64,000 bases of DNA from a bacterium (GTDB lineage Bacteria; UBA8248): the NCBI GenBank assembly GCA_965204535.1, contig CBDBEV010000001.1, positions 192,001 through 256,000 on the forward strand, given 5' to 3'. The notes below the pieces were generated by a model. That model did not search any database. It was not told where the DNA came from and saw only the letters and a list, made by a program, of their open reading frames with translations. The translations under genes and the position numbers were made by a program. The first letter of the stretch is position 1, and the number at the start of each line of letters is the position of its first letter. Below, one piece after another: positions 3,146 through 16,575 of the stretch.

Positions 3146-3317
3146 GAGGTCGTTGAAAAAGCCCCCCGACGAGGGAAAATTTGTTTGTGTGTAGGGGTCG
3201 CATACATGCGACCCTGCTTTTTTCACCTACTGCAAGGGCCGCATGTATGCGGCCCCTACACTCCCTTCGGCAAGTCGGAATCCCGTTGCCGTTATTGCAG
3301 GGTTTTTCAACGACCCC
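3146..3317. mobile_element. MITE-like element carrying a GTAG palindrome pair
   Basis: Ends GAGGTCGTTGAAAAA / TTTTTCAACGACCCC (14/15 inverted). Internal TGTAGGGGTCGCATACATGCGACCC...GGGCCGCATGTATGCGGCCCCTACA at 3190-3260. Confidence 0.65.
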
Positions 3318-4308: not shown

Positions 4309-4599
4309 GGGGTTGTGAAAATCCCTGCAATGCCGGGTTCCCCGTCATTCCGGCCTTGGCCGGAATGACGAGCAAAAACACACCTTCCTTGAGTTTCATT
4401 TTCACTCCCCCCTTGAGGGGGAGTGAATTCCTTTCTCACCGGTCGGGTTCAACCCCCCCTACCCCCCCTTGTCAGGGGGGCAAGAAAAAGCAAAACCCCT
4501 CTACCGGCAGTGCGCGCCGCCTTTTTATACCCCCCTGACAAGGGGGGGTAGGGGGGGTTGCCTTTGTCCCCTGTTAAGAGGAACTTTCTCAACGGCCCC
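4309..4599. mobile_element. Composite MITE-like element between znuC and znuB
   Basis: Ends GGGGTTGTGAAAA / TTTCTCAACGGCCCC. Contains a GTCATTCCGGC hairpin, a TCACTCCCCCCTTGAGGGGGAGTGA palindrome and a 31-bp perfect inverted repeat (4450-4480 / 4530-4560). Confidence 0.65.
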
Positions 4600-5380
4600 C
4601 GTGGGAGTGCCGGGCTTCTTCGACCTCGACGGGGAGAATCTCTCCATCCGGACCGTGAACGTGGTCGTGCTTGTGGGTGTAGACGGCGAGGCTCTCGGCC
4701 GCATGCTTGCCGAACAGGGCGAGGTATTCGGGGTTTTTGCTCACGGCTTCGGGATGCCCCGTGCAGCAGATGTGCCTGTTGAGGCACACCACGCGGTCGG
4801 TGAACGCCATGACGAGGTGGAGGTCGTGCGAGATCAGGATGACGCCGCAGCCCCTGTCGTCCCTGATCTTCGCGATCAGGCGGTAGAGTTCGCTCTGCCC
4901 GTTGACGTCCACGTTCTGGATGGGCTCGTCGAGAACGAGCAGTTCGGGGTCTCGCAGCAGGGCGCGGGCGAGCAGCACGCGCTGGCGCTCTCCGCCGGAG
5001 AGGCTCTGGACGGGATGATCCAGCAGGTCTCCGGCGCCGACTTCCTCGAGGCTCTCCTCCATCTCCTTAGGCGAAGGCTTCTGCGTGAGGCGCAGCAATC
5101 TGCGCACGGTCAGCGGGAGCGAGTGGTCCACCTCGAAGGACTGGGGCAGGTAGCCGACCGAGAGTCCCTCTTTCCGGCGGACTTCTCCCGAATCGGGCTT
5201 GAGCAGGCCGAGCAGCACGCGGACGAGCGTGGTCTTGCCCGCGCCGTTCGGCCCGATGAGAGTGAGGATTTCAGCCGCTGAAATGTCGAGGCCCACGTTG
5301 TGGAGTATCGTCGTTTCGCCGATTCGGAGATGGAGGTTCGCGGCGGTGACGAGAGAGCGCCGCGCGTCATTTATCATCAT
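4589..5380 (-). CDS. znuC: Zinc ABC transporter ATP-binding protein
   Basis: Walker A GPNGAGKT, LSGGERQR, LDEP, C-terminal CLNRHICCTGHP and HKHDHVH. Confidence 0.93.
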   Translation of the reverse strand: MMINDARRSLVTAANLHLRIGETTILHNVGLDISAAEILTLIGPNGAGKTTLVRVLLGLLKPDSGEVRRKEGLSVGYLPQSFEVDHSLPLTVRRLLRLTQKPSPKEMEESLEEVGAGDLLDHPVQSLSGGERQRVLLARALLRDPELLVLDEPIQNVDVNGQSELYRLIAKIRDDRGCGVILISHDLHLVMAFTDRVVCLNRHICCTGHPEAVSKNPEYLALFGKHAAESLAVYTHKHDHVHGPDGEILPVEVEEARHSHGGR

Positions 5381-5855
5381 GACACTCCTTGCACCTGCCG
5401 CTGATTTCCATGACGGGCGTCTCCACCAGAAAACCGGCCCGGGTGGCGCTCGCCTCGATGGCCTCGCCGATTTCCTCGCTGTGCGTCTCGGCCACGGTTC
5501 CGCAGTCGCGGCAGATGAAGAACTGCGCCTTGTGGGCGTTCCCCGGTGTGGCGCAGCCCACGAACGCCTTTTGACTCTCGATGCGGTGGATGAGGCCGTG
5601 CTTCAGGAGGAAATCCAGCGCCCGGTAGACCGTGGGCGGGGCGCTTCGCCCTCCGTTCTCGTTCATACGCTCGAGCACGTCGTAGGCGCCCATGGGCGTA
5701 TGGCTCTCCCAGATGATCTCCAGCACCCGCCTCCTGAGCGGCGTGAGCCTCGCACCTCGCTCCCTGCAAAGCGCTTCGGCTTGTTCCAGGGCGCTCTCGA
5801 CGCAGGCCCCGTGGTCGCGATCCCTGCCGGGAGAATTCTTTTTCATCGATGTCAT
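5367..5855 (-). CDS. zur: Fur-family zinc uptake regulator
   Basis: RLTPLRRRVLE, PPTVYRALDFL, CRDC and CKEC; adjacent to znuABC. Confidence 0.9.
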   Translation of the reverse strand: MTSMKKNSPGRDRDHGACVESALEQAEALCRERGARLTPLRRRVLEIIWESHTPMGAYDVLERMNENGGRSAPPTVYRALDFLLKHGLIHRIESQKAFVGCATPGNAHKAQFFICRDCGTVAETHSEEIGEAIEASATRAGFLVETPVMEISGRCKECHDDK

Positions 5856-5865
5856 CTAAAGTTCC

Positions 5866-5899
5866 TTGACGAGCAAAATAGTAATGTTATATTATAACA
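5866..5899. promoter_or_regulatory. Zur box overlapping the znuA promoter
   Basis: Perfect 7-1-7 palindrome TGTTATA-T-TATAACA at 5885-5899, matching the proteobacterial Zur box, between divergent zur and znuA. TTGACG (-35) at 5866 puts the -10 region inside the box. Confidence 0.88.
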
Positions 5900-5946
5900 A
5901 ATAGAAAACTTATTCAATCCCATTTCACGCCGAAAGGAAAGAATTC

Positions 5947-7122
5947 ATGAATAGGATCGAATCCATGAAATATATGTTGTTCACTGCGGCCCTGACAATG
6001 ACGCTTATTGCGCGCCTGGCCGCCCCCGCATCGGCCGCGCCCAAGGTGGTGGCCTCCATCAAGCCGCTTCATTCGCTGGTCTCGGGCGTCATGAAGGGGG
6101 TCGGCGAACCTTATCTGCTGATAAAAGGCGCCGCTTCGCCGCATACGTTTTCGCTCAAACCCTCCGACGCCAGGGAGATCGAGCGGGCGCGCGTGATTTT
6201 CTGGGTGGGCGAGTCGCTCGCCCCGAGCCTCGAGCGGCCCCTCGAAGTTCTGCCGAAACGGGCGGAGGTCGTCGCCATGGCGGAGATAAAGGGTCTGAAG
6301 CTGTTGAAGCTCAGGGAAGGCGGCTTGTGGGAAGGGCACGACGATCATCACGGTGAGGACGAAAAAGGCGGCCACCACGACGAACATAAGCGCGGCATGG
6401 CCAAAAAAGACGACCATCACCACGATGAGGACAAACACGGCAAAGGCAAAGATGACCACCACAAGCATGAGCACGAAAAAGCCAAAGACGATCACCATGA
6501 TGATCGCAAACACGCTATGGCCAAAGACAAGCACCACGATGAACATAAACACGAGAAAGCCAAGGATGATCACCACGGCGAGAAGGCCGGGCATCATCAC
6601 AGCGATCTCGACGTTCACGTCTGGCTCGACCCCATGAACGCCAAGAAGTGGGTGCATGAAATCACGCATGAGCTCGAAGAGGCGGATCCTGCGAACAGCG
6701 AAAAATACGAGGCGAACGAAAAGAGGCTTATGGCTCGATTGGACGCCCTGCACGAGGAATTGAAAGGCACGCTCGCGCCCCTGAAAGGCGCGCCCTACAT
6801 CGTCTTTCACGATGCGTATCAATACTATGAGAAACGCTACGGGCTGAACGCCATCGGTTCGGTGACCATCTCGCCCGAGAACAAGCCGGGCGCGGCGCGC
6901 CTCGTCGAGATTCGCAAGAAGGTCAGGGACACGAAATCTATCTGCGTGTTCTCCGAGCCGCAGTTCGAACCCAAACTGGTGAGGGTCGTCATGGAGGGAA
7001 CGGGTGCCGGAACCGGTGTGCTCGACCCCTTGGGCGCGGATATTCCCGCCGGTGAGGACGCGTATTTCACCCTCCTGCGCAACATGGCGAAATCGCTCAA
7101 TACGTGTCTTTCGCGGAAATAA
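5947..7122 (+). CDS. znuA: Zinc ABC transporter substrate-binding protein with a long His-rich loop
   Basis: Signal peptide, VVASIKPLHSLV, SPHTFSLKPSD, HVWLDP, FHDAYQY, FSEPQF. Start may be at 5965. Confidence 0.93.
   Translation: MNRIESMKYMLFTAALTMTLIARLAAPASAAPKVVASIKPLHSLVSGVMKGVGEPYLLIKGAASPHTFSLKPSDAREIERARVIFWVGESLAPSLERPLEVLPKRAEVVAMAEIKGLKLLKLREGGLWEGHDDHHGEDEKGGHHDEHKRGMAKKDDHHHDEDKHGKGKDDHHKHEHEKAKDDHHDDRKHAMAKDKHHDEHKHEKAKDDHHGEKAGHHHSDLDVHVWLDPMNAKKWVHEITHELEEADPANSEKYEANEKRLMARLDALHEELKGTLAPLKGAPYIVFHDAYQYYEKRYGLNAIGSVTISPENKPGAARLVEIRKKVRDTKSICVFSEPQFEPKLVRVVMEGTGAGTGVLDPLGADIPAGEDAYFTLLRNMAKSLNTCLSRK
7045..7122 (+). repeat. Left copy of the znuA 3'-end direct repeat
   Basis: CCCGCCGGTGAGGACGCGTATTTCACCCTC (7045-7074) is identical to 14317-14346; similarity continues to the stop codon. 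Confidence 0.9.
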
Positions 7123-7362
7123 TTTGAGGCGGCGCTTCCCGGGGATATGAACCAGCCCGCTCTATTCCCCCCGCATATCCCCGGGAGCCGCCCGCTATTT
7201 TCGTAGCGGCGAACGGAACCGAAGGGAGTTTCGATGGTTCTGTAGCCGGACAGGCGCAGGAGTCTGTCCGGGCACCTGTGTGTGGTCGGTGAAGCAAGCG
7301 AGCCGGTCCAGCGCTTCATGGCGCATCGTGAACGGGAAATCTGAAAGGGAAAGGAGAAATCG

Positions 7363-8499
7363 GTGAAGGCGAGAGTTTTGTTATTGGCCGCCGCGGCCGC
7401 GCTTTTCTGGCACGCGCCCGCCCTGGCTCAACAGTCCGTCGAGGAACGCCTCCTCAACATGGAAAAGCGCATCAGGCAGTTGGAAGAGCGCGTCTCCGCG
7501 CAGGATAAGGTAATTGCCGAGAAAGACAAGCAAATAGCCAGGCTCACCGGTGGAGACAAGTGGTTCGAAGCCGTGGAAATCGGTGGCGTCATAGATCTCA
7601 GAGGAATCGTGACCAGCCCCCCCGAGGGAGATAACGAAACAGATTTGGTCGTGGACTCGCTCGAAATCGGCATTGGCGCCCAGGTGAGCGATTGGGTAAA
7701 CGCAGAGGTCGTGCTCCTCTGGGAACAGGGCGAGGGTCCCGTGGACGTCGATACCGCGACGGTGACGATAGGCCCGCCCGAGGGCGCATGGTCCATCACG
7801 GGTGGCCAGCTCTACGTTCCGTTCGGCGCCTTCGAGACGAACCTGATCTCCGACCCCCTGACGCTCGACATCGGCGAGACGAGACAGACCGCCTTCCAAC
7901 TCGACGCTTCGGCCGGCGCGCTGAGCGGGTCGGTATTCGTCTTCAAGGGCGACAACATGGAAGACGGCGACAACCTCATCCAGGGCTTCGGTTTCGCGGC
8001 GGGCTATTCGGTCGAGACGGACAGCTTCGAGCTTGGGCTGAATCTCTCCTACACCAACGACCTGGGTGATTCGGACGGCTTGGAGGTCGAAGGTGCGGAA
8101 GGCTACGACCGCGTTGCGGGCATTTCGGCGAGCGCGACCCTGACGATTGGAAGCGTCTCGGTGCTCGGCGAGTATCTGGGAGCGATGGATACGTTTGGCG
8201 CGGACTATGTTGCGTTCGGCGACTACGGCGCGAAACCATCCGCCTGGATGGTCGAGGCGGCCTACGGGTTCGAGTTGGCCGGCAAGGAGGCGACGCTGGC
8301 CGCCAGCTACCAGACGACGGATGAGGCGCTGGCGCTTGAGTTGCCGAAAAAACGCATGCTGGTCGGACTTTCGTCCGAGGTGATGGACGGGCTCTCTCTG
8401 GGCTTCGAGTGGGCGCGTGATACGGACTACGGCGCCGATGAAGGCGGAAGCGGCGAGCACACCGACAACTTCACCGTCCAGTTGGCCGCCGAATTTTAG
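7363..8499 (+). CDS. Outer-membrane beta-barrel porin, LbtU-like
   Basis: Signal peptide, N-terminal coiled coil, GQLYVPFGAFETNLISDPLTLDIGET motif, C-terminal Phe (QLAAEF). GTG start after AAGGAG. Confidence 0.75.
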   Translation: MKARVLLLAAAAALFWHAPALAQQSVEERLLNMEKRIRQLEERVSAQDKVIAEKDKQIARLTGGDKWFEAVEIGGVIDLRGIVTSPPEGDNETDLVVDSLEIGIGAQVSDWVNAEVVLLWEQGEGPVDVDTATVTIGPPEGAWSITGGQLYVPFGAFETNLISDPLTLDIGETRQTAFQLDASAGALSGSVFVFKGDNMEDGDNLIQGFGFAAGYSVETDSFELGLNLSYTNDLGDSDGLEVEGAEGYDRVAGISASATLTIGSVSVLGEYLGAMDTFGADYVAFGDYGAKPSAWMVEAAYGFELAGKEATLAASYQTTDEALALELPKKRMLVGLSSEVMDGLSLGFEWARDTDYGADEGGSGEHTDNFTVQLAAEF

Positions 8500-8672
8500 C
8501 CGGCGCCAGGGTACGGACAGACCTTGCGGAGAGGAGATTCCCCGCAATTCGGCGTGGGGCGGCAGCCGGTGTGCCCCGGCCGCACAAGCAGGGTGTGGTA
8601 TTCGCTGAAAAACAGGGATAGCAGGGTCATCATCCACCGTTTGAAAGACGCAATCCAGGAGGAACCTGAAGG

Positions 8673-9050
8673 ATGAACATCGCATACGTTTTCGCCACCG
8701 ACATGTCGGCGACCTACAAGCTGGGCACCATGATCCTGCCGCAACTCGAAGCCGGCAACCACGGGGTGAACGTCGTCGGCATGTTCTTCTTCGACGACAA
8801 CCTGTTCTGCCTGCGCGAGGGCGACGAGGTGGGCGAGCGACTGGCCAAGGTCGCCGCGGAGCAGAACATCCTCCTCATGGTCTGCGATCAGTGCGCCGTG
8901 CGGCGCAACCTCGCCGAGGGCACGTTCGAACAGTGCGGCTCCGGCGACGTCAAGGCGAAGGGCCTGGTGGCCGGTGTGGGCGCCGGTTGTTTCCCGCAGC
9001 TATACGCAGCGCTCGCCCCCGCCGCGCCCGACCTGGTCATCACCCTTTGA
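8673..9050 (+). CDS. DsrE-related protein, SaoD-like
   Basis: [43 protein letters not shown]-terminus; RBS GGAGG. Confidence 0.75.
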
Positions 9051-9070
9051 GTGAGGGAACCAAAGTGCCC

Positions 9071-10285
9071 ATGTCAGAGAGACTTCCCGTTACTGTCCTG
9101 TCCGGCTTTCTCGGTGCAGGCAAGACCACTCTTCTAAACAACGTGCTCAAAAACCGCGAGGGCATGCGCGTCGCGGTCATCGTCAACGATATGAGCGAGG
9201 TCAACATCGACGCGGCGCTCGTTGAGCGCGGCGGTGCGGAACTCTCGCGGACCGAGGAGAAACTGGTCGAGATGTCGAACGGCTGCATCTGCTGCACGCT
9301 GCGAGACGACCTGCTCGCTGAGGTCTCACGGCTCGCGCAGGAGAAACGCTTCGACTACCTGCTCATCGAGTCCACCGGGATATCCGAGCCCATTCCCGTC
9401 GCGCAGACCTTCACCTTCGAGGACGAGAACGGTGTGAGCCTGGGGCAGGTATCGCGCCTCGACACGATGGTCACGATCGTGGACGCGGAGAGCTTCCTGC
9501 GGGACTACAACGCCGCCAACGCGCTCCAGGACCGCGGTGAGTCGCTGGGCGAAGATGATCACCGGACGGTGACCGACCTGCTCATCGACCAGATCGAGTT
9601 CGCCGACGTCATCGTGCTCAACAAGATCGATCTCGTGAGCAACGATCAGGCTCTCGAGGTCAAGGCTATCGTGAAAGCGCTCAACCCCGGCGCGAAGCTC
9701 CTCATGGCGACGCACGGACAGGTCCCGCTCGAATGCGTGCTCGACACGGGCCTGTTCGACTACGAGAAGGCGGAGAGCTCCGCCGGCTGGATTCGAGAGC
9801 TTCAGGGTGAGCACACGCCGGAGACCGAGGAGTACGGGATATCGAGCTTCACCTATCGGACGGCGCAGCCCTTCGACGCCGAGAAGCTGTGGGCGTTCCT
9901 GCACGACGACGAGAACTGGAGCGGCGTGCTCCGCTCAAAGGGCCTCTTCTGGGTCGCCGCTGACCACCGGATCGCCTACGAGTGGGCTCTGGCCGGCGGC
10001 GTCAGCGACGTGAAACCCGCCGGGATGTGGTGGGCGGCCGTGCCTCGCGAACACTGGGAGCACCCCGAGGATGAGCGACCTGACCAGGAGCCGGACTGGC
10101 ATCCCCGCTTCGGCGATCGCGTGCAGCAACTCGTCTTCATCGGCCAGCAGATGCACGAGGCGGCGATACGCGCCCGCCTCGACGCGTGCCTGCTCGACGA
10201 GCGCCTCGCCTCCGCTGGCAGCAAGGTCTGGGCAGAGCTCCGGAACCCGTTTCCGGAGCTTCTTATGGCCGAGGAGCCGGCATGA
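9071..10285 (+). CDS. COG0523/CobW-family zinc metallochaperone GTPase (ZigA/YciC-like)
   Basis: [51 protein letters not shown], CobW_C LVFIG. Confidence 0.92.
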
Positions 10286-10532
10286 CCGGAACTGCCTCGT
10301 CCGTTTTGGCGAAAGGGGCACCGGCATCTCGTGGCGCCTTTCGGTCATCCGTACTTCACGTGCGCACGTCCTGCAGGGCGCCCGGCTCTCCGCGTGAGCC
10401 GCACGAGAGAGTCGAGCCGGATTCAAATCTATCAAGAGCTTCGCGCGACGTTCCATGAGAGCCCATTGGGCCATCACGCGGACGTTCGACGTCCAAATTC
10501 CAATACCCGCACCTCTGCTCGAGGAGAACTAG

Positions 10533-11879
10533 ATGAACACGCCGCGAAAAGTACCTGTTTCCATCCTCACCGGTTTCCTCGGCTCTGGCAAGACGACCCT
10601 GCTCAACCGGATATTGAGTGAAGAGCACGGCAAGCGCATTGCCGTGATCGAGAACGAGTACGGAGAGGTCGGCATCGATCAGGCGCTCGTCATCAACGCT
10701 GACGAAGAGATCTTCGAGATGGCGAACGGCTGCATCTGTTGCACGGTGCGCGGAGACCTGATTCGCGTGCTCGGCAATCTCATGAAGCGCCGCGACAAGT
10801 TCGACTATGTGTTGGTGGAGACCACAGGGCTCGCCGATCCCGGCCCGGTCGCTCAGACCTTCTTCATGGACGACGAGATTCGCGCGGAGTTCGCGCTTGA
10901 CGGGATCGTCACGCTCGTCGATGCAGCCCACATCGAGCAACAGCTCGGCCGAAGCGACGAAAGCACCGAGCAAATCGCGTTCGCGGACGTCCTGTTGCTC
11001 AACAAGACGGACCTCGTCAACGGCGAGGCGCTCGACAGGCTCGAAGCCCGGCTCCGGGACATGAACCGAATGGCGCGCGTCGTGCGCAGCGAGCGGGCGG
11101 ACGTTTCGGTCGACACGGTCCTCAACCTCGGCGCCTTCGACCTGGACCAGGTGCTCGAGCGTCGTCCCACCTTCCTCGAGCCGGAGTATCCGTTCGAATG
11201 GACCGGAGTCTATTCGCTCGATACCGGCCGCTACGAACTCGACCTCGCCGATGGACCTGATCCGGCGATGTCGCTCGTCGTCGTGTCCGACCAGGGCACG
11301 GATGACGCTGCCCTCCGTGAGGGTGCGGAGTGGTGTGTGCGGCAGTACGCCGAACCTGCGGAGCTCATTCGCCCGGGGGAAGAGATTCCCCTCGGAAAGC
11401 ATGTGAATCTCCAGCTCGATTCCCCGGGGCGCAAGTCGTTCTTCCTGGAGGTCGACACGCAGGTGCGGGTTGCCCTCTACGCCGAGCACGGCGCGGAGGA
11501 GTTCGATCTCCAACTGAGGAACGCGGAAGGAGCGACAATCAGGCAGGAGGTGGAGCGCACCTGGGTCGCACAGCACGAGCACGACGACGAGGTGGGCTCG
11601 ATCGCGATCGAGAGGGACGGCGACGTCGACCCCAAAAAGCTCGACGCCTGGATTGGCGAACTGCTCCGTGAGCGCGGGGTGGACATCTTCCGAATGAAGG
11701 GCTTCATCAGCCTCGCGGGTGAGTCGCGTCGCTTCGTCTTCCAGGGGGTTCACATGCTCTTTGACGGCCAGCCGGATCGTCCATGGGGAGACTCGCCCCG
11801 GCGCAATCAGCTCGTCTTCATCGGCCGCGACCTCGATGAACAGAGCATGCGGCAGGGATTCGAGTCATGCCTGATTTGA
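10533..11879 (+). CDS. Second COG0523/CobW-family GTPase with an inserted domain
   Basis: GFLGSGKTT, ENEYGE, NGCICCTVR, ETTGLADP, NKTD; ~130 aa insert before CobW_C (FRMKG...QGVH...LVFIGR). Confidence 0.9.
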   Translation: MNTPRKVPVSILTGFLGSGKTTLLNRILSEEHGKRIAVIENEYGEVGIDQALVINADEEIFEMANGCICCTVRGDLIRVLGNLMKRRDKFDYVLVETTGLADPGPVAQTFFMDDEIRAEFALDGIVTLVDAAHIEQQLGRSDESTEQIAFADVLLLNKTDLVNGEALDRLEARLRDMNRMARVVRSERADVSVDTVLNLGAFDLDQVLERRPTFLEPEYPFEWTGVYSLDTGRYELDLADGPDPAMSLVVVSDQGTDDAALREGAEWCVRQYAEPAELIRPGEEIPLGKHVNLQLDSPGRKSFFLEVDTQVRVALYAEHGAEEFDLQLRNAEGATIRQEVERTWVAQHEHDDEVGSIAIERDGDVDPKKLDAWIGELLRERGVDIFRMKGFISLAGESRRFVFQGVHMLFDGQPDRPWGDSPRRNQLVFIGRDLDEQSMRQGFESCLI

Positions 11880-11900
11880 ATATCGACAGGAGGAGCCTGC

Positions 11901-13031
11901 ATGAGCGGCACCGAGAGCAGTGAAATCTTCTATGACGCAGTGATCGTCGGCGCCGGCGCCGCAGGCGTGGGCGCCGCGGTGGCTCTCAGGCATGCCGGCA
12001 TCGAGAACTTCGTAGTTCTCGATCGTCACACGGTCGGCGCATCGTTCGCCTCATGGCCGGCCGAGACTCGCTTTATCACGCCCTCGTACCCGACCAATTC
12101 GATTGGCATGCTCGATTTGAACTCGATCGCGATTGGAACTTCACCCGCGTTCAGTTTGGAGGTTGAGCATCCGACGGGTGAAGAGTACGCGATATATTTG
12201 CGTGCAGTCGCACATTTCTTTGAGTTACCCGTACGCCAGGATACCGACGTGATGCAGATAGCAAAGGTTGGCGACGGCTTTCGCATCGATACGGCCGACG
12301 GGACCTTGCAAGCCAAGCACGTCATCTGGGCCGCCGGCGAGTTCCAATACCCGCGCTTGAATGGGTTTGTCGGCAGCCAATTGTGTCGTCACACCGCGAC
12401 CATCGCCAGTTATGGAGAGCTTGACGGTGACGACTTCATCGTTGTGGGTGGCTACGAAAGTGGTGTCGACGTGGCCTACCACCTGGCGTACCGCGACAAA
12501 CGAGTGCGGTTGTTCGACAAGGATTGCCCGTGGGAGGAAGAGAGTTCCGATCCCAGTGTCGCGCTTTCCCCGTTTACGCTCGAACGGATGCGTGAAGACT
12601 GGTTTGTCGAGCAAGTGAAACTGTTTCCGCACACACCTATCGAATCGGTCACTCGCGTGGACGCCATGTATGAAGTCACGGCTCGAGACGGGCATCGGTT
12701 TGAAACCCGCGTGCCGCCGCTATGGGCGGGCGGATTCGAGGGGAGTCACAAGTTGGTCGCGGATTTGTTTGAACGACGCGACGATGGCTTTCCGCTTCTG
12801 AGCGAACACGATGAATCAACCATCGTACCGGGCGTATTTCTCTGCGGCCCCGCAGTTCGCCATGACAATTCCGTCTTCTGTTTTATCTACAAGTATCGAC
12901 AACGATTCGCCGTTGTCGCCAAAGCCATTGCGACCTCGTTGGGGCTGCCGGCGGAAGAGTTGGAAGAGTACCGCAAGTGGGGCATGTATCTCGATGACCT
13001 CTCCTATTGCGGGGAGGAGTGCGTATGTTGA
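11901..13031 (+). CDS. NAD(P)/FAD-dependent oxidoreductase (CzcO-like) with a Cys-rich C-terminus
   Basis: VGAGAAG FAD motif, WAAGEFQYP, VGGYESG, FCFIYKYRQRF, terminal DDLSYCGEECVC. Confidence 0.82.
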   Translation: MSGTESSEIFYDAVIVGAGAAGVGAAVALRHAGIENFVVLDRHTVGASFASWPAETRFITPSYPTNSIGMLDLNSIAIGTSPAFSLEVEHPTGEEYAIYLRAVAHFFELPVRQDTDVMQIAKVGDGFRIDTADGTLQAKHVIWAAGEFQYPRLNGFVGSQLCRHTATIASYGELDGDDFIVVGGYESGVDVAYHLAYRDKRVRLFDKDCPWEEESSDPSVALSPFTLERMREDWFVEQVKLFPHTPIESVTRVDAMYEVTARDGHRFETRVPPLWAGGFEGSHKLVADLFERRDDGFPLLSEHDESTIVPGVFLCGPAVRHDNSVFCFIYKYRQRFAVVAKAIATSLGLPAEELEEYRKWGMYLDDLSYCGEECVC

Positions 13032-13252
13032 CGGGAAACGACGAAGGGGCCGCCGCGTCTGGTGCGAGGCGAAGCCGACTGGCCAGGGTGCGGAGCATCG
13101 AATGGCTCGGACAAACGGTCGCCAGCGTTTGCTGGATTGGCAGCATGCTGACTTACGGGATCAGGTCCGGTGGGGATTGGTTGCAGTTGTTTGCTGCATC
13201 CGCATGGCTGTTGGCCAACATCGCAGCGATTGCGACTGCCAAGGCTGATTGA
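13025..13252 (+). CDS. Small membrane protein (about two TM helices)
   Basis: ATG overlaps the oxidoreductase end, RBS GGAGGAG; hydrophobic EWLGQTVASVCWIGSMLTYG and DWLQLFAASAWLLANIAAI. Confidence 0.65.
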   Translation: MLTGNDEGAAASGARRSRLARVRSIEWLGQTVASVCWIGSMLTYGIRSGGDWLQLFAASAWLLANIAAIATAKAD

Positions 13253-13253
13253 G

Positions 13254-14300
13254 ATGTCGGCAGCACTTCAAAATGTCGACGCCCCAAAGGGTGTTCTTCG
13301 CCGGGGCTGGTCTGCGGCGGTTGGCGACTACGCTATCGCCGGTGGCTGGAGCCTGCGTGGTGAGGCGCTGATGGTCGGTGACGCTGCGGGTGGCGTTTAC
13401 GCATTCGACGGCAAGTCTGGCGCGACCACCTGGGAGCGGCGCGGGGTTCATGAAGGCGGTGTGCTCGCGGTGGCGGTCCACCCAAGCGGAACCACGTTCG
13501 CTACGGCTGGCCAGGACGGACGAGTCCTTATCTGGGGTGTCGCCGAAGGTCAGGTACAACAGGCTATCGACATCGGGGGCGATTGGGTGGAGAACGTGGC
13601 GTGGTCGCCGGACGGCCAGTGGTTGGCGGCCTCCTGCTCCCGGCAGGTTCGCGCGTATGGCGTGGACGGCGCGGAGGTTTGGCGATCTGATGATCATCCC
13701 AGCACGGTCAGCGCGATCGCCTGGTCGAGCGCAGGGGAGCTGGCGACGGCCTGTTACGGTCGAGTGACGTTCTTCGACGCGCCCACCGGCGAGCTTCGCC
13801 AGATGCTGGAGTGGCGGGGATCCTTGGTGTCGATGGCGCTGAGCCCGGGCGGGGATATCGTGGCCTGCGGCAGCCAGGACAACACGGTGCACTTCTGGCG
13901 TCGCTCCACGGAGCGGGACGCCATGATGTCAGGATATTCCGCCAAGCCGTCGGCACTGGCTTTCGATGATACCGGCACCCTTTTGGCCACCGGCGGAGGG
14001 GAGGCGGTGACGGTCTGGAGCTTCGAGGGAGATGGTCCCGAAGGCACGCGGCCCGGTGTTCTGGAGTTTCATGTTCAACCCGTCACGACGCTTGCCTTCG
14101 CTCGCCGCGGGATGCGCCTGGCATCGGCGGCACGGGATGGCGCCGTGGTGGTGTGGTCGCTTGAGAGGGATGGAAATGGCCGTCCGATCGGGACCGCGGT
14201 TTTGGCGGGCATCGGGGCGAAACTGTACTGGCGGCCGGACGGGCGCGCGCTTGCCGCGCTCGACGCGCAGGGTGGCGTGACGGCTTGGCGGATAGGATGA
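13254..14300 (+). CDS. WD40-repeat beta-propeller protein
   Basis: Repeated blades: VAVHPSGTTFATAGQDGRVLIW, VAWSPDGQWLA, LSPGGDIVACGSQDNTVHFW, LASAARDGAVVVW. Confidence 0.88.
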   Translation: MSAALQNVDAPKGVLRRGWSAAVGDYAIAGGWSLRGEALMVGDAAGGVYAFDGKSGATTWERRGVHEGGVLAVAVHPSGTTFATAGQDGRVLIWGVAEGQVQQAIDIGGDWVENVAWSPDGQWLAASCSRQVRAYGVDGAEVWRSDDHPSTVSAIAWSSAGELATACYGRVTFFDAPTGELRQMLEWRGSLVSMALSPGGDIVACGSQDNTVHFWRRSTERDAMMSGYSAKPSALAFDDTGTLLATGGGEAVTVWSFEGDGPEGTRPGVLEFHVQPVTTLAFARRGMRLASAARDGAVVVWSLERDGNGRPIGTAVLAGIGAKLYWRPDGRALAALDAQGGVTAWRIG

Positions 14301-14316
14301 ACAAATGCCCGAATTG

Positions 14317-14392
14317 CCCGCCGGTGAGGACGCGTATTTCACCCTCTTGCGCAAACATGGCGAAATCATTAAGGATGTGCCTTTCAGGGTAA
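14317..14392 (+). pseudogene. Duplicated, frameshifted znuA C-terminal remnant (right direct repeat)
   Basis: Encodes PAGEDAYFTLLR, then +1 nt, then NMAKSLRMCLSG*, versus znuA PAGEDAYFTLLRNMAKSLNTCLSRK*. Confidence 0.85.
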
Positions 14393-14439
14393 TGATGCGG
14401 GAATGACGGGCAAAAGCGCGTTCCCCTCGCCTTGAAAAC

Positions 14440-14554
14440 CAACCCCCCCTACCCCCCCTTGTCAGGGGGGTATTAAAAGGCGACGCCCGCCGCCGCCGGT
14501 AGAGGGGTTTTTGTTTTTTCTTACCCCCCTGACAAGGGGGGGCAGGGGGGGTTG
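14440..14554. repeat. CAACCCCCCCTACCCCCCCTTGTCAGGGGGG inverted-repeat element
   Basis: Same arms as 4450-4560, 20114-20259 and 48100-48211. Confidence 0.85.
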
Positions 14555-14609
14555 CCTTTATCCCCTGACAAGGGAGCTATATCAACAGCCCCCCCACAGT
14601 CGCGTTTGA

Positions 14610-16084: not shown

Positions 16085-16395
16085 CCGTCATTCCGGCGTC
16101 ACTGCCGCTCCTTTTGTAGGGGTCGCATATATGCGACCCGTTTTCCTGCACGGACGATGCGAACCGATGCAGGCGGACGGGACATACCAGTCGGAACATC
16201 CTCACCGGTCAGGACGCATGTATGCGTCCCCTACAAAAGAACATCCCCCCGTGGTTGCCCTTCACCCGTAGGGATAGGTCGCGACCTGTCCCTACAATTC
16301 CTCGCGCGTCAATCGCATTTCACCTGTAGGGGTCACATACATGCGACCCGGCCTTTTTCGCCGCCCGTCATGGGCCGCATATATGCGGCCCCTAC
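16085..16395. repeat. Cluster of GTAG-type REP-like palindromes
   Basis: TGTAGGGGTCGCATATATGCGACCC (16115), GGACGCATGTATGCGTCCCCTACA, CGTAGGGATAGGTCGCGACCTGTCCCTACA; the pair at 16325-16395 is near-identical to 38978-39049. Confidence 0.85.
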
Positions 16396-16575
16396 AAAAA
16401 ACCGCCTACTACCCGTTTACGTCGAACCTTCATTCATCGGGACTTTCTTCAACACCCCCCTCCAAAGGATCAATCCCACTCGAATCTCCCCCGCGCGACT
16501 GGACGCCGACGCGCGGAATCATTTAGCCTTTAACGTCATTTACCCTCACTATAACGAATGAACCGGCGCCGGAAA

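Follow-up and report, generated by a model that had tools for sequence, protein, structure and literature searches.

What is the role of seven genes that lie behind the zinc-uptake gene znuA of a UBA8248 bacterium, and do they form one pathway? The window that we analysed is a stretch of 64,000 nucleotides (nt), positions 192,001 to 256,000 of contig CBDBEV010000001.1 (assembly GCA_965204535.1). Downstream of znuA, at 7363-14300, it holds seven plus-strand open reading frames (ORFs). All seven are intact and open throughout, in agreement with an earlier note on this DNA that had described seven co-oriented genes after znuA. We read the block as an extension of the znuA transcript for zinc starvation, repressed by Zur, that grew as a stepwise patchwork in one branch of its genus, and we give this reading, with its proposed working, a probability of roughly 0.6. 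Directly observed, and described first, are the gene set, the Zur-type box, the uneven distribution of the genes and the scars.

The zur gene (5367-5855, minus strand) encodes a Fur-family repressor (PF01475) and is the first gene of a divergent zur-znuC-znuB unit; its best NCBIfam match is the Zur model NF008646 at 125.8 bits, below the cut-off of 167. On the plus strand, znuA (5947-7122) encodes a His-rich zinc-binding protein (NF007091, 269.2 against a cut-off of 268; PF01297). The block begins with an LbtU-family porin gene (7363-8499; NF033652, 271.9 against 90) and a DsrE/SaoD-related gene (8673-9050, or 8607-9050 with its 66-nt leader; NF040913, 200.2 against 152), whose product has a CxxC motif at residues 71-74. 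Two COG0523 GTPase genes follow, one of the ZigA/YciC type (9071-10285; NF038288, 623.7 against 600) and a second with an insert of about 135 residues (10533-11879; PF02492 and PF07683). A flavin adenine dinucleotide (FAD)/NAD(P)H flavoprotein gene (11901-13031; PF13738) is overlapped at its stop by 7 nt by the ORF of a hydrophobic micro-protein of 75 amino acids (13025-13252, best start ATG at 13025), which is conserved and has no family. The last gene encodes a WD40 beta-propeller (13254-14300; PF00400) with no signal peptide evident by eye. Three block proteins pass NCBIfam cut-offs, namely the porin, DsrE and ZigA. Ribosome-binding-like sequences precede most of the seven genes.

A Zur-type palindromic box is found at 5882-5902 between zur and znuA. 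The matrix used was built from 11 znuA-promoter sites of same-genus genomes; it gives this box 36.8 bits, the best score in the genome with a runner-up at 19.7, a result that is partly by construction because the training sites come from close kin. The core of the box equals that of a Bradyrhizobium znuCBA-COG0523-5-WD40 box (Haas 2009, additional file 5; PMC2770081). A sigma-70-like promoter match (5866-5895, plus strand, 10 of 12 consensus positions) overlaps the box; it is weak alone, as three such sites were found against 1.8 expected in shuffles. A Zur box in the promoter marks regulon membership, as stated in the available part of PMC6103462, and at znuA the 36.8-bit candidate does overlap a promoter-like site. 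No separate box is present in the block, as the earlier note had also seen: the best score inside 7123-14316 is -2.0 bits. No promoter-like site was called inside the gene block, and no terminator-like site within 7123-7362. Co-transcription of the block with znuA from the Zur-boxed promoter is plausible. Weaker Zur-like sites of 15.6-19.7 bits lie at G000:C1:26599, C2:39292 and C2:1305946 of this genome (G000), and a riboswitch search of the window with Rfam gave two chance hits only.

Transcription of znuA could also end just behind the gene, leaving the block weakly read from cryptic promoters or carried as decaying cargo. Two observations weigh against read-through and would fit this alternative. 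A strong GC-rich hairpin (7128-7192, plus strand) stands directly after znuA, and similar sequence is found 3' of znuA in kin without the block; among the listed RNA-run contigs of relatives, none bridges znuA and the porin. Yet the hairpin has no U-tract, and the whole-spacer z score of -1.24 is not significant. The contigs do bridge the leader-porin, GTPase-flavoprotein and flavoprotein-small ORF junctions; they represent mixed strains, so that their gaps and depth carry no weight and they cannot prove a single transcript. The genus also shows losses and an insertion in three of the four closest carriers, and 18 of 23 genomes have no flavoprotein match. Against this alternative stand the seven intact frames with their ribosome-binding-like sequences, the silent divergence of the dsrE copy described below and a porin leader that is conserved in carriers. 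We therefore hold a stop at the hairpin to be improbable.

The patchwork is evident from the genus survey, which covered 23 genomes, several of them incomplete. The flavoprotein gene is present in five, and the second COG0523 gene in the same five. The porin is found in nine, six times behind znuA, twice elsewhere and once as a weak fragment; two carriers of porin and DsrE (G003, G018) end at contig breaks. Only G000 has all seven genes intact on one contig. G011 also has the seven, with its second GTPase gene interrupted by a 1372-nt insertion whose frame we take to be transposase-like, and in G012 the block genes are split over two contigs. In G002 a clean deletion removed the porin and dsrE, leaving the start of the porin gene fused to the end of dsrE; the last five genes are retained at 98% identity. 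G013 lacks zigA and repeats the last 23 codons of the second GTPase gene after the small ORF. In RNA-run contigs of relatives the second COG0523 gene is joined directly to WD40, with about 1400 nt skipped, in three of four runs (three studies). Together with the G013 repeat, this makes it likely that the flavoprotein pair is an insert in an older GTPase-WD40 pair.

The dsrE gene of the block arose by recent duplication of a core gene. A second copy, 94% identical, lies at G000:C2:2640046-2640485, and dsrE is present in 23 of 23 genus genomes, 18 of which have no flavoprotein. The duplicated stretch begins 66 nt 5' of the ATG and is thus without the native upstream promoter region; the native copy itself has no Zur-type box (best score -2.8 bits). 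The two copies differ by 14 synonymous and one non-synonymous codons, which suggests that both are kept. The block would have been put together from separately travelling parts (the porin, a promoterless copy of core dsrE, ZigA and a COG0523-WD40 cassette), and a pair of flavoprotein and micro-membrane-protein genes would have been inserted into the cassette.

Three scars are found in and beside the block. On the minus strand, 8505-8612 is what is left of the 3' end of an endonuclease-III-like (HhH-GPD) gene, now decayed; 23 of 36 residues are identical (expectation value (E) 2e-10; query PF00730), and the intact gene is on contig C1. This gene faces znuA in G001, G007, G009 and G015, and the porin in G010. 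An ArsR remnant considered for 8500-8672 was ruled out, the stretch being this scar. At 10485-10532 (plus strand) lies the 3' scar of an ORF of about 100 codons that is deleted here, with 73% identity over the last 15 residues (E 3e-5). In 19 of 80 loci, foreign and kin together, this ORF stands 5' of the second COG0523 gene. An example is L048:8322-8630, with a CxExxCxPxET-like stretch and no Pfam or NCBIfam match. Behind the WD40 gene, 14317-14396 (plus strand) is a frameshifted 80-nt remnant of a second znuA 3' end, 84% identical to 7045-7123; a 369-nt version stands at the same place in G013, and G002 and G011 have none. None of these scars, nor the second dsrE copy, figured in the earlier note. 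Kin with two znuA genes flanking znuB-znuC-zur also occur (L025, L026 and L027, from G016, G014 and G005), and in G001 a short 5' piece of znuA is present in addition, along with a second box.

Do the seven products work in one pathway? The earlier note had proposed a single route of import and release, in which all seven would be dedicated to one task: the porin would let a zinc chelate in, DsrE and the flavoprotein would free the metal, and the two GTPases would deliver it. Co-orientation behind one Zur box would fit it, as would a DsrE gene near zigA-flavoprotein in the unrelated locus L165 (70% identity) and a DsrE branch that adjoins metal transporters. The proposal failed the gene-neighbourhood check named in that note, however. 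We surveyed the best 80 of at least 560 genome loci and the best 80 of at least 574 metagenome loci of the flavoprotein. The genome loci contain the small ORF in 79 cases, COG0523 in 39, WD40 in 26, DsrE in five and the porin in one, and three of the five DsrE matches are fragments of 44-51 residues. The metagenome loci contain the small ORF in 69, a ZigA-type gene in 36, and WD40, DsrE and porin in one, one and none; a COG0523 gene is present in 30 of the 49 that have enough flank. Over both sets the porin accompanies the flavoprotein in 1 of 160 loci and a whole or near-whole DsrE in 3 of 160. DsrE is moreover a core gene of genomes that mostly have no flavoprotein, and G002 keeps the last five genes without porin and DsrE. 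It weighs against our reading that the loci are the best-scoring ones and that many are on short contigs.

The porin itself also speaks against that pathway. Its model is a 16-strand barrel with an N-terminal coiled coil (predicted local distance difference test score, pLDDT, 85), in accord with the LbtU family, and a fold search gives the general porins OmpU, PorB, Omp32, OprP and DcaP as best matches. A column check over 92 rows found no conserved His or Cys. With these two results a specific zinc-chelate role of the porin is unsupported. In the same-genus genome G001 a stand-alone porin has a box that is identical to the G001 znuA box in 20 of 21 positions, and it is followed by an imelysin gene. 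The single import-and-release pathway is thus largely refuted by co-occurrence and has hardly any probability left: the zinc link of the block stands, the one shared pathway does not.

Links to zinc are also found in foreign loci. In Latescibacterota locus L052 a 35-bit box heads a znuCBA-zur-zigA-COG0523-flavoprotein-small-WD40 string. Two foreign motifs were counted with up to two mismatches. TTGCAA-N5-TTGCAA, which Haas 2009 (additional file 5; PMC2770081) lists among the Zur boxes of beta-proteobacteria, precedes zigA-flavoprotein in 27 of 33 loci against a background of 24 in 1039 windows; its assigned sites adjoin ZigA, HisI, DUF1826, MerC-like and His-rich protein genes. TGATAC-N3-GTATCA stands before a stand-alone flavoprotein in 14 of 35 Chloroflexota loci against 11 in 2072. 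On three annotated plasmids, distant flavoprotein homologues stand among folE2, dksA, hisI, zigA/COG0523, rpsN, rpmG or a gene for a zinc-binding protein, and ZIP transporters are found in 8 of the 80 genome loci. With the Zur-type box before znuA and that of the stand-alone G001 porin, these zinc-linked loci in other lineages support well the zinc-starvation context given in the earlier note. Two points weigh against it. Both motifs were derived from the very loci used for counting, and kin are not independent. For TGATAC-N3-GTATCA, the 12 sites in five chosen genomes comprise five at flavoproteins, two at ZnuA, two at ABC transporters and three others; for TTGCAA-N5-TTGCAA, about half of the 10 sites in three of four genomes are beside no assigned zinc gene. 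A separate de novo palindrome scan at operon heads, limited by a crude gene caller, gave sites in few loci.

A cassette for nickel or cobalt that was merely captured by the Zur promoter here would account for HupE/UreJ genes, which lie upstream in 10 of the 80 loci, and for NicO-type and ArsP-type permeases in L052 and L045. Such genes hint at another metal and are a further point against zinc. They are outweighed by the Zur-type boxes, znuABC, ZIP transporters and zinc-free paralogue genes at these loci, and by the published zinc or calprotectin induction of similar gene pairs (available parts of PMC5480029 and PMC2823685), so that we give a nickel or cobalt cassette very little credence.

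Several observations were made beside this survey. Plasmid records with the flavoprotein family number 498 for Klebsiella and 20 for Escherichia; in one inspected record (L230:159-10299) it lies within a zinc cluster of folE2, dksA, cysS, zigA, hisI and two Fur-family genes. In Nitrospirales loci L074-L082 the flavoprotein stands amid two ZigA-type genes, a ZIP transporter, a MerR-like regulator and ribosomal protein genes. A protein of about 210 residues, in no Pfam or NCBIfam family, is encoded 3' of the small ORF in Nitrospirales, Planctomycetota and metagenomes (16 of 80 genome and 32 of 80 metagenome loci; for example L081:11279-11956 and L122:7354-8650), in some cases as two tandem copies ahead of a second ZigA. 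A clade of Dehalococcoidia has a conserved upstream element of about 120 nt (L063:9860-9985, L226-L228, L233-L241), with 12 matches in 6 of 301 genomes: five before the flavoprotein and seven before a His-rich solute-binding lipoprotein that resembles a ZnuA-family protein of L069. It never occurs together with TGATAC-N3-GTATCA (14 and 14 of 35 loci). In L228 the element forms the 3' end of a peroxiredoxin (AhpC/TSA) frame that is intact there and decayed elsewhere. It was considered as a riboswitch and rejected, with no Rfam match, compensatory change in 2 of 25 pairs and the AhpC/TSA 3' end in L228; it is likely a copied promoter region.

The flavoprotein may have been acquired by transfer. 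The window flavoprotein is 89-97% identical to proteins in records titled Binatia, Latescibacterota, Spirochaetia and Gammaproteobacteria, whereas ZnuA identity within the genus is 63-94%, which suggests recent transfer. In a quick tree the window copy groups with rows of Binatota, Gammaproteobacteria, Latescibacterota and Spirochaetota at support of 82-99; this is suggestive of transfer, and bins may hold foreign contigs. For the porin and the WD40 protein, proteins at about 89-90% and 88% identity, respectively, are named Nitrospinae by their sources.

The two GTPases belong to different types. The first (9071-10285) has the features of ZigA/YciC, that is COG0523 subfamily 1: it passes the NF038288 cut-off and has Walker A, CxCC (CICC, residues 72-75), ExxG and NKxD motifs, with Walker A and NKxD intact. 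In the second, a long non-His insert spans about residues 215-350, and the gene is linked to WD40, as in COG0523 subfamily 5 and cyanobacterial branch 1a. An insert of this kind is described for branch 1a in the available part of PMC3323870. All 23 of the 80 genome loci with this second type also hold a WD40 gene, and the order COG0523-flavoprotein-small-WD40 is found in 20 of the 80, incomplete ones counted. By its sequence the second GTPase is subfamily-5-like. A protein-atlas search with its insert matched other CobW proteins only, and no WD40 relatives were found in viral contigs. A plasmid link of WD40 was dropped: of four plasmid matches, the one inspected is an unrelated WD-repeat gene. 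A third COG0523-like gene, with a CLCC motif, lies elsewhere in the genome (G000:C2:111846-112900).

The most interesting piece of the block is the flavoprotein, a widespread cysteine-tailed flavin enzyme that might well keep zinc-binding cysteines reduced. It belongs to the family of PDB entry 3D1C (S. aureus NP_373108), which is found by phmmer at E 2e-72 with residues 13-376 aligned to the end and is also the top fold match; the similarity is full-length, with a conserved FCFIYK motif and the cysteine tail. Cysteines are present at 162, 209, 315, 327, 370, 374 and 376. In an alignment with rows down to 35% identity, C327, C374 and C376 are found in 38 of 38 rows and C370 in 97%. Among solved relatives, sequence and fold searches place YpdA/Bdr disulfide reductases next after 3D1C, followed by thioredoxin reductases; homologue P0211 is fused to a thioredoxin domain. 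From the invariant cysteines, these relatives and the fusion we infer a thiol reductase. Long, eukaryotic-looking homologues with N-terminal extensions also exist (P0157, P0159, P0168, P0174, P0211, P0249), and an apparent COG0523-flavoprotein fusion, P0238, was not counted as it appears frameshifted between and within its domains.

The nearest characterised relative is the bacillithiol disulfide reductase YpdA/Bdr (PDB 7A76, 7A7B; E 3e-9 and fold); unlike it, the window family has the extra cysteine tail and a zinc-linked context. Several points weigh against a thiol reductase. The flavoprotein scores 81.8 on the YpdA/Bdr model TIGR04018, below its cut-off of 339.9, and 26.2 on the thioredoxin reductase model TIGR01292, below 343.45, and it has no internal CxxC. 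Where the tail usually has CC, the window copy has YC. The structural model has a mean pLDDT of 64, and of about 30 in the tail, and it does not resolve the reach of the tail to the flavin.

The same operon could instead carry a flavin monooxygenase or another small-molecule enzyme, with C327 and the tail as a structural zinc site and the enzyme as a client of the neighbouring GTPase. The fingerprint of class B flavin monooxygenases is FxGxxxH; in the flavoprotein alignment FxG is followed by H five residues on instead of three. Monooxygenase models are far below their cut-offs (ArsO NF040505, 57 against 425), and disulfide reductases outrank monooxygenases in sequence and fold searches. 3D1C is nevertheless titled a putative monooxygenase and, in the available part of PMC10604202, described as a Baeyer-Villiger monooxygenase, which also weighs against a reductase. 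The four conserved cysteines could make one zinc site. COG0523 lies directly 5' of the flavoprotein in 31 of 80 loci, but 41 of 80 have no COG0523 in the available stretch, and a new zinc consumer would be uneconomical under zinc starvation. On balance a monooxygenase client seems unlikely, though it deserves some weight.

Flavoprotein and membrane protein form the tightest unit of the loci. In 78 of 80 the small ORF has its start codon 7 nt before the flavoprotein stop ends, and changes in the micro-protein ORF by codon position are 405/248/689. The micro-protein has no Pfam or NCBIfam match. YrhK (PF14145) was not matched at E 0.01 or 0.001 and is a weak lead from an atlas cluster with 13% YrhK members (score 0.91). 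A FeoB-like Gate protein fills the slot in L098, the sole genome locus without the small ORF, and in two metagenome loci; the same protein stands beside a flavoprotein homologue on S. epidermidis, Klebsiella and Paenibacillus plasmids. That the micro-protein is a fragment of the FeoB-like protein was rejected, as none of four proteins gave a profile match; the partners have no detectable homology.

How would the extended znuA transcript work? At low zinc, Zur would leave its box and RNA polymerase would read through the hairpin. The porin may ease passive entry of zinc or small zinc chelates towards ZnuA and ZnuBC, and both GTPases would bind zinc at CxCC and allocate it, with the WD40 protein likely serving the second as an adaptor. 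The flavoprotein would act as an NAD(P)H-driven thiol reductase: its C-terminal tail would take electrons from the flavin side (C327) and pass them to cysteine sites that have lost their zinc and are oxidised, and the micro-protein would be its membrane partner. This last step is tentative, at somewhat less than even odds.

Most parts of the block have been noted before, singly or in pairs, and the exact seven-gene string is new. The word undescribed in the earlier note therefore holds for the string and not for its sub-pairs, which are already in print. According to the available portion of Haas 2009 (PMC2770081), COG0523 subfamily 5 is listed with WD40 and znuABC, in the layouts znuC<>znuA-X-COG0523-5-WD40 (Prochlorococcus Pro1504) and znuCBA-COG0523-5-WD40 (Bradyrhizobium, Nitrobacter); the WD40 link and the insert are also treated in Barnett 2012 (PMC3323870, in part). 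The window resembles these layouts in its same-core Zur box, znuA in first place, a COG0523 with long insert and WD40 in last place, but adds the porin, DsrE, ZigA and the pair of flavoprotein and micro-protein. In S. aureus, the NWMN_2481 (COG0523)-2482-2483 (FAD-dependent oxidoreductase) genes are calprotectin-induced 43-, 83- and 152-fold, as given in the accessible text of PMC5480029. By gene order, NWMN_2483 would correspond to 3D1C. The staphylococcal triad likewise combines COG0523, a membrane protein and a flavoprotein, that of S. epidermidis being 35% identical to the window flavoprotein (E 2e-73), while its membrane partner is the FeoB-like Gate protein instead of the 75-residue protein.

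In C. glutamicum, cg0794 (yciC) and cg0795 (oxidoreductase) are direct Zur targets for which a joint role was proposed in 2010 (PMC2823685, available part). The likeness, drawn from the gene descriptions, lies in Zur-type control of a COG0523 gene and of an oxidoreductase gene of unknown function; unlike the window genes, the two are divergent. A non-SAO SaoD-related DsrE branch adjoins metal ABC transport genes (Haft 2022, bioRxiv 10.1101/2022.07.06.499078, in the part available). The window likewise has a CxxC DsrE protein beside metal transport genes, but as a recent duplicate of a core gene; it scores 115.2 on the SaoD model of the SAO system (NF040732, cut-off 169), and it is the sister model NF040913 that is matched above cut-off. 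Legionella LbtU is a TonB-independent siderophore receptor in the available part of PMC11705809; the window porin is of the same NCBIfam family but stands under a Zur-type box, not Fur.

As a gene string the block is one further lineage-specific Zur cluster. It illustrates operon growth by the capture of genes behind an existing Zur promoter, here including a core-gene copy that lacks its own promoter. A broader proposal is that the 3D1C-family flavoprotein and its coupled membrane partner, 75-residue or FeoB-like Gate, may be an unnamed cross-phylum zinc-starvation component that repairs or strips zinc-thiolate sites as a direct partner of Zur-regulated COG0523 GTPases. We regard this as doubtful; if true, the flavoprotein would be the first bacterial partner of these GTPases.

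To be noted, two families of short intergenic palindromic repeats, resembling repetitive extragenic palindromes (REP) or miniature inverted-repeat transposable elements (MITE), occur in the window at 4450-4578 and 14435-14572, and at 3182-3260 and 16111-16399. One copy is located 3' of znuC and one directly 3' of the znuA remnant.

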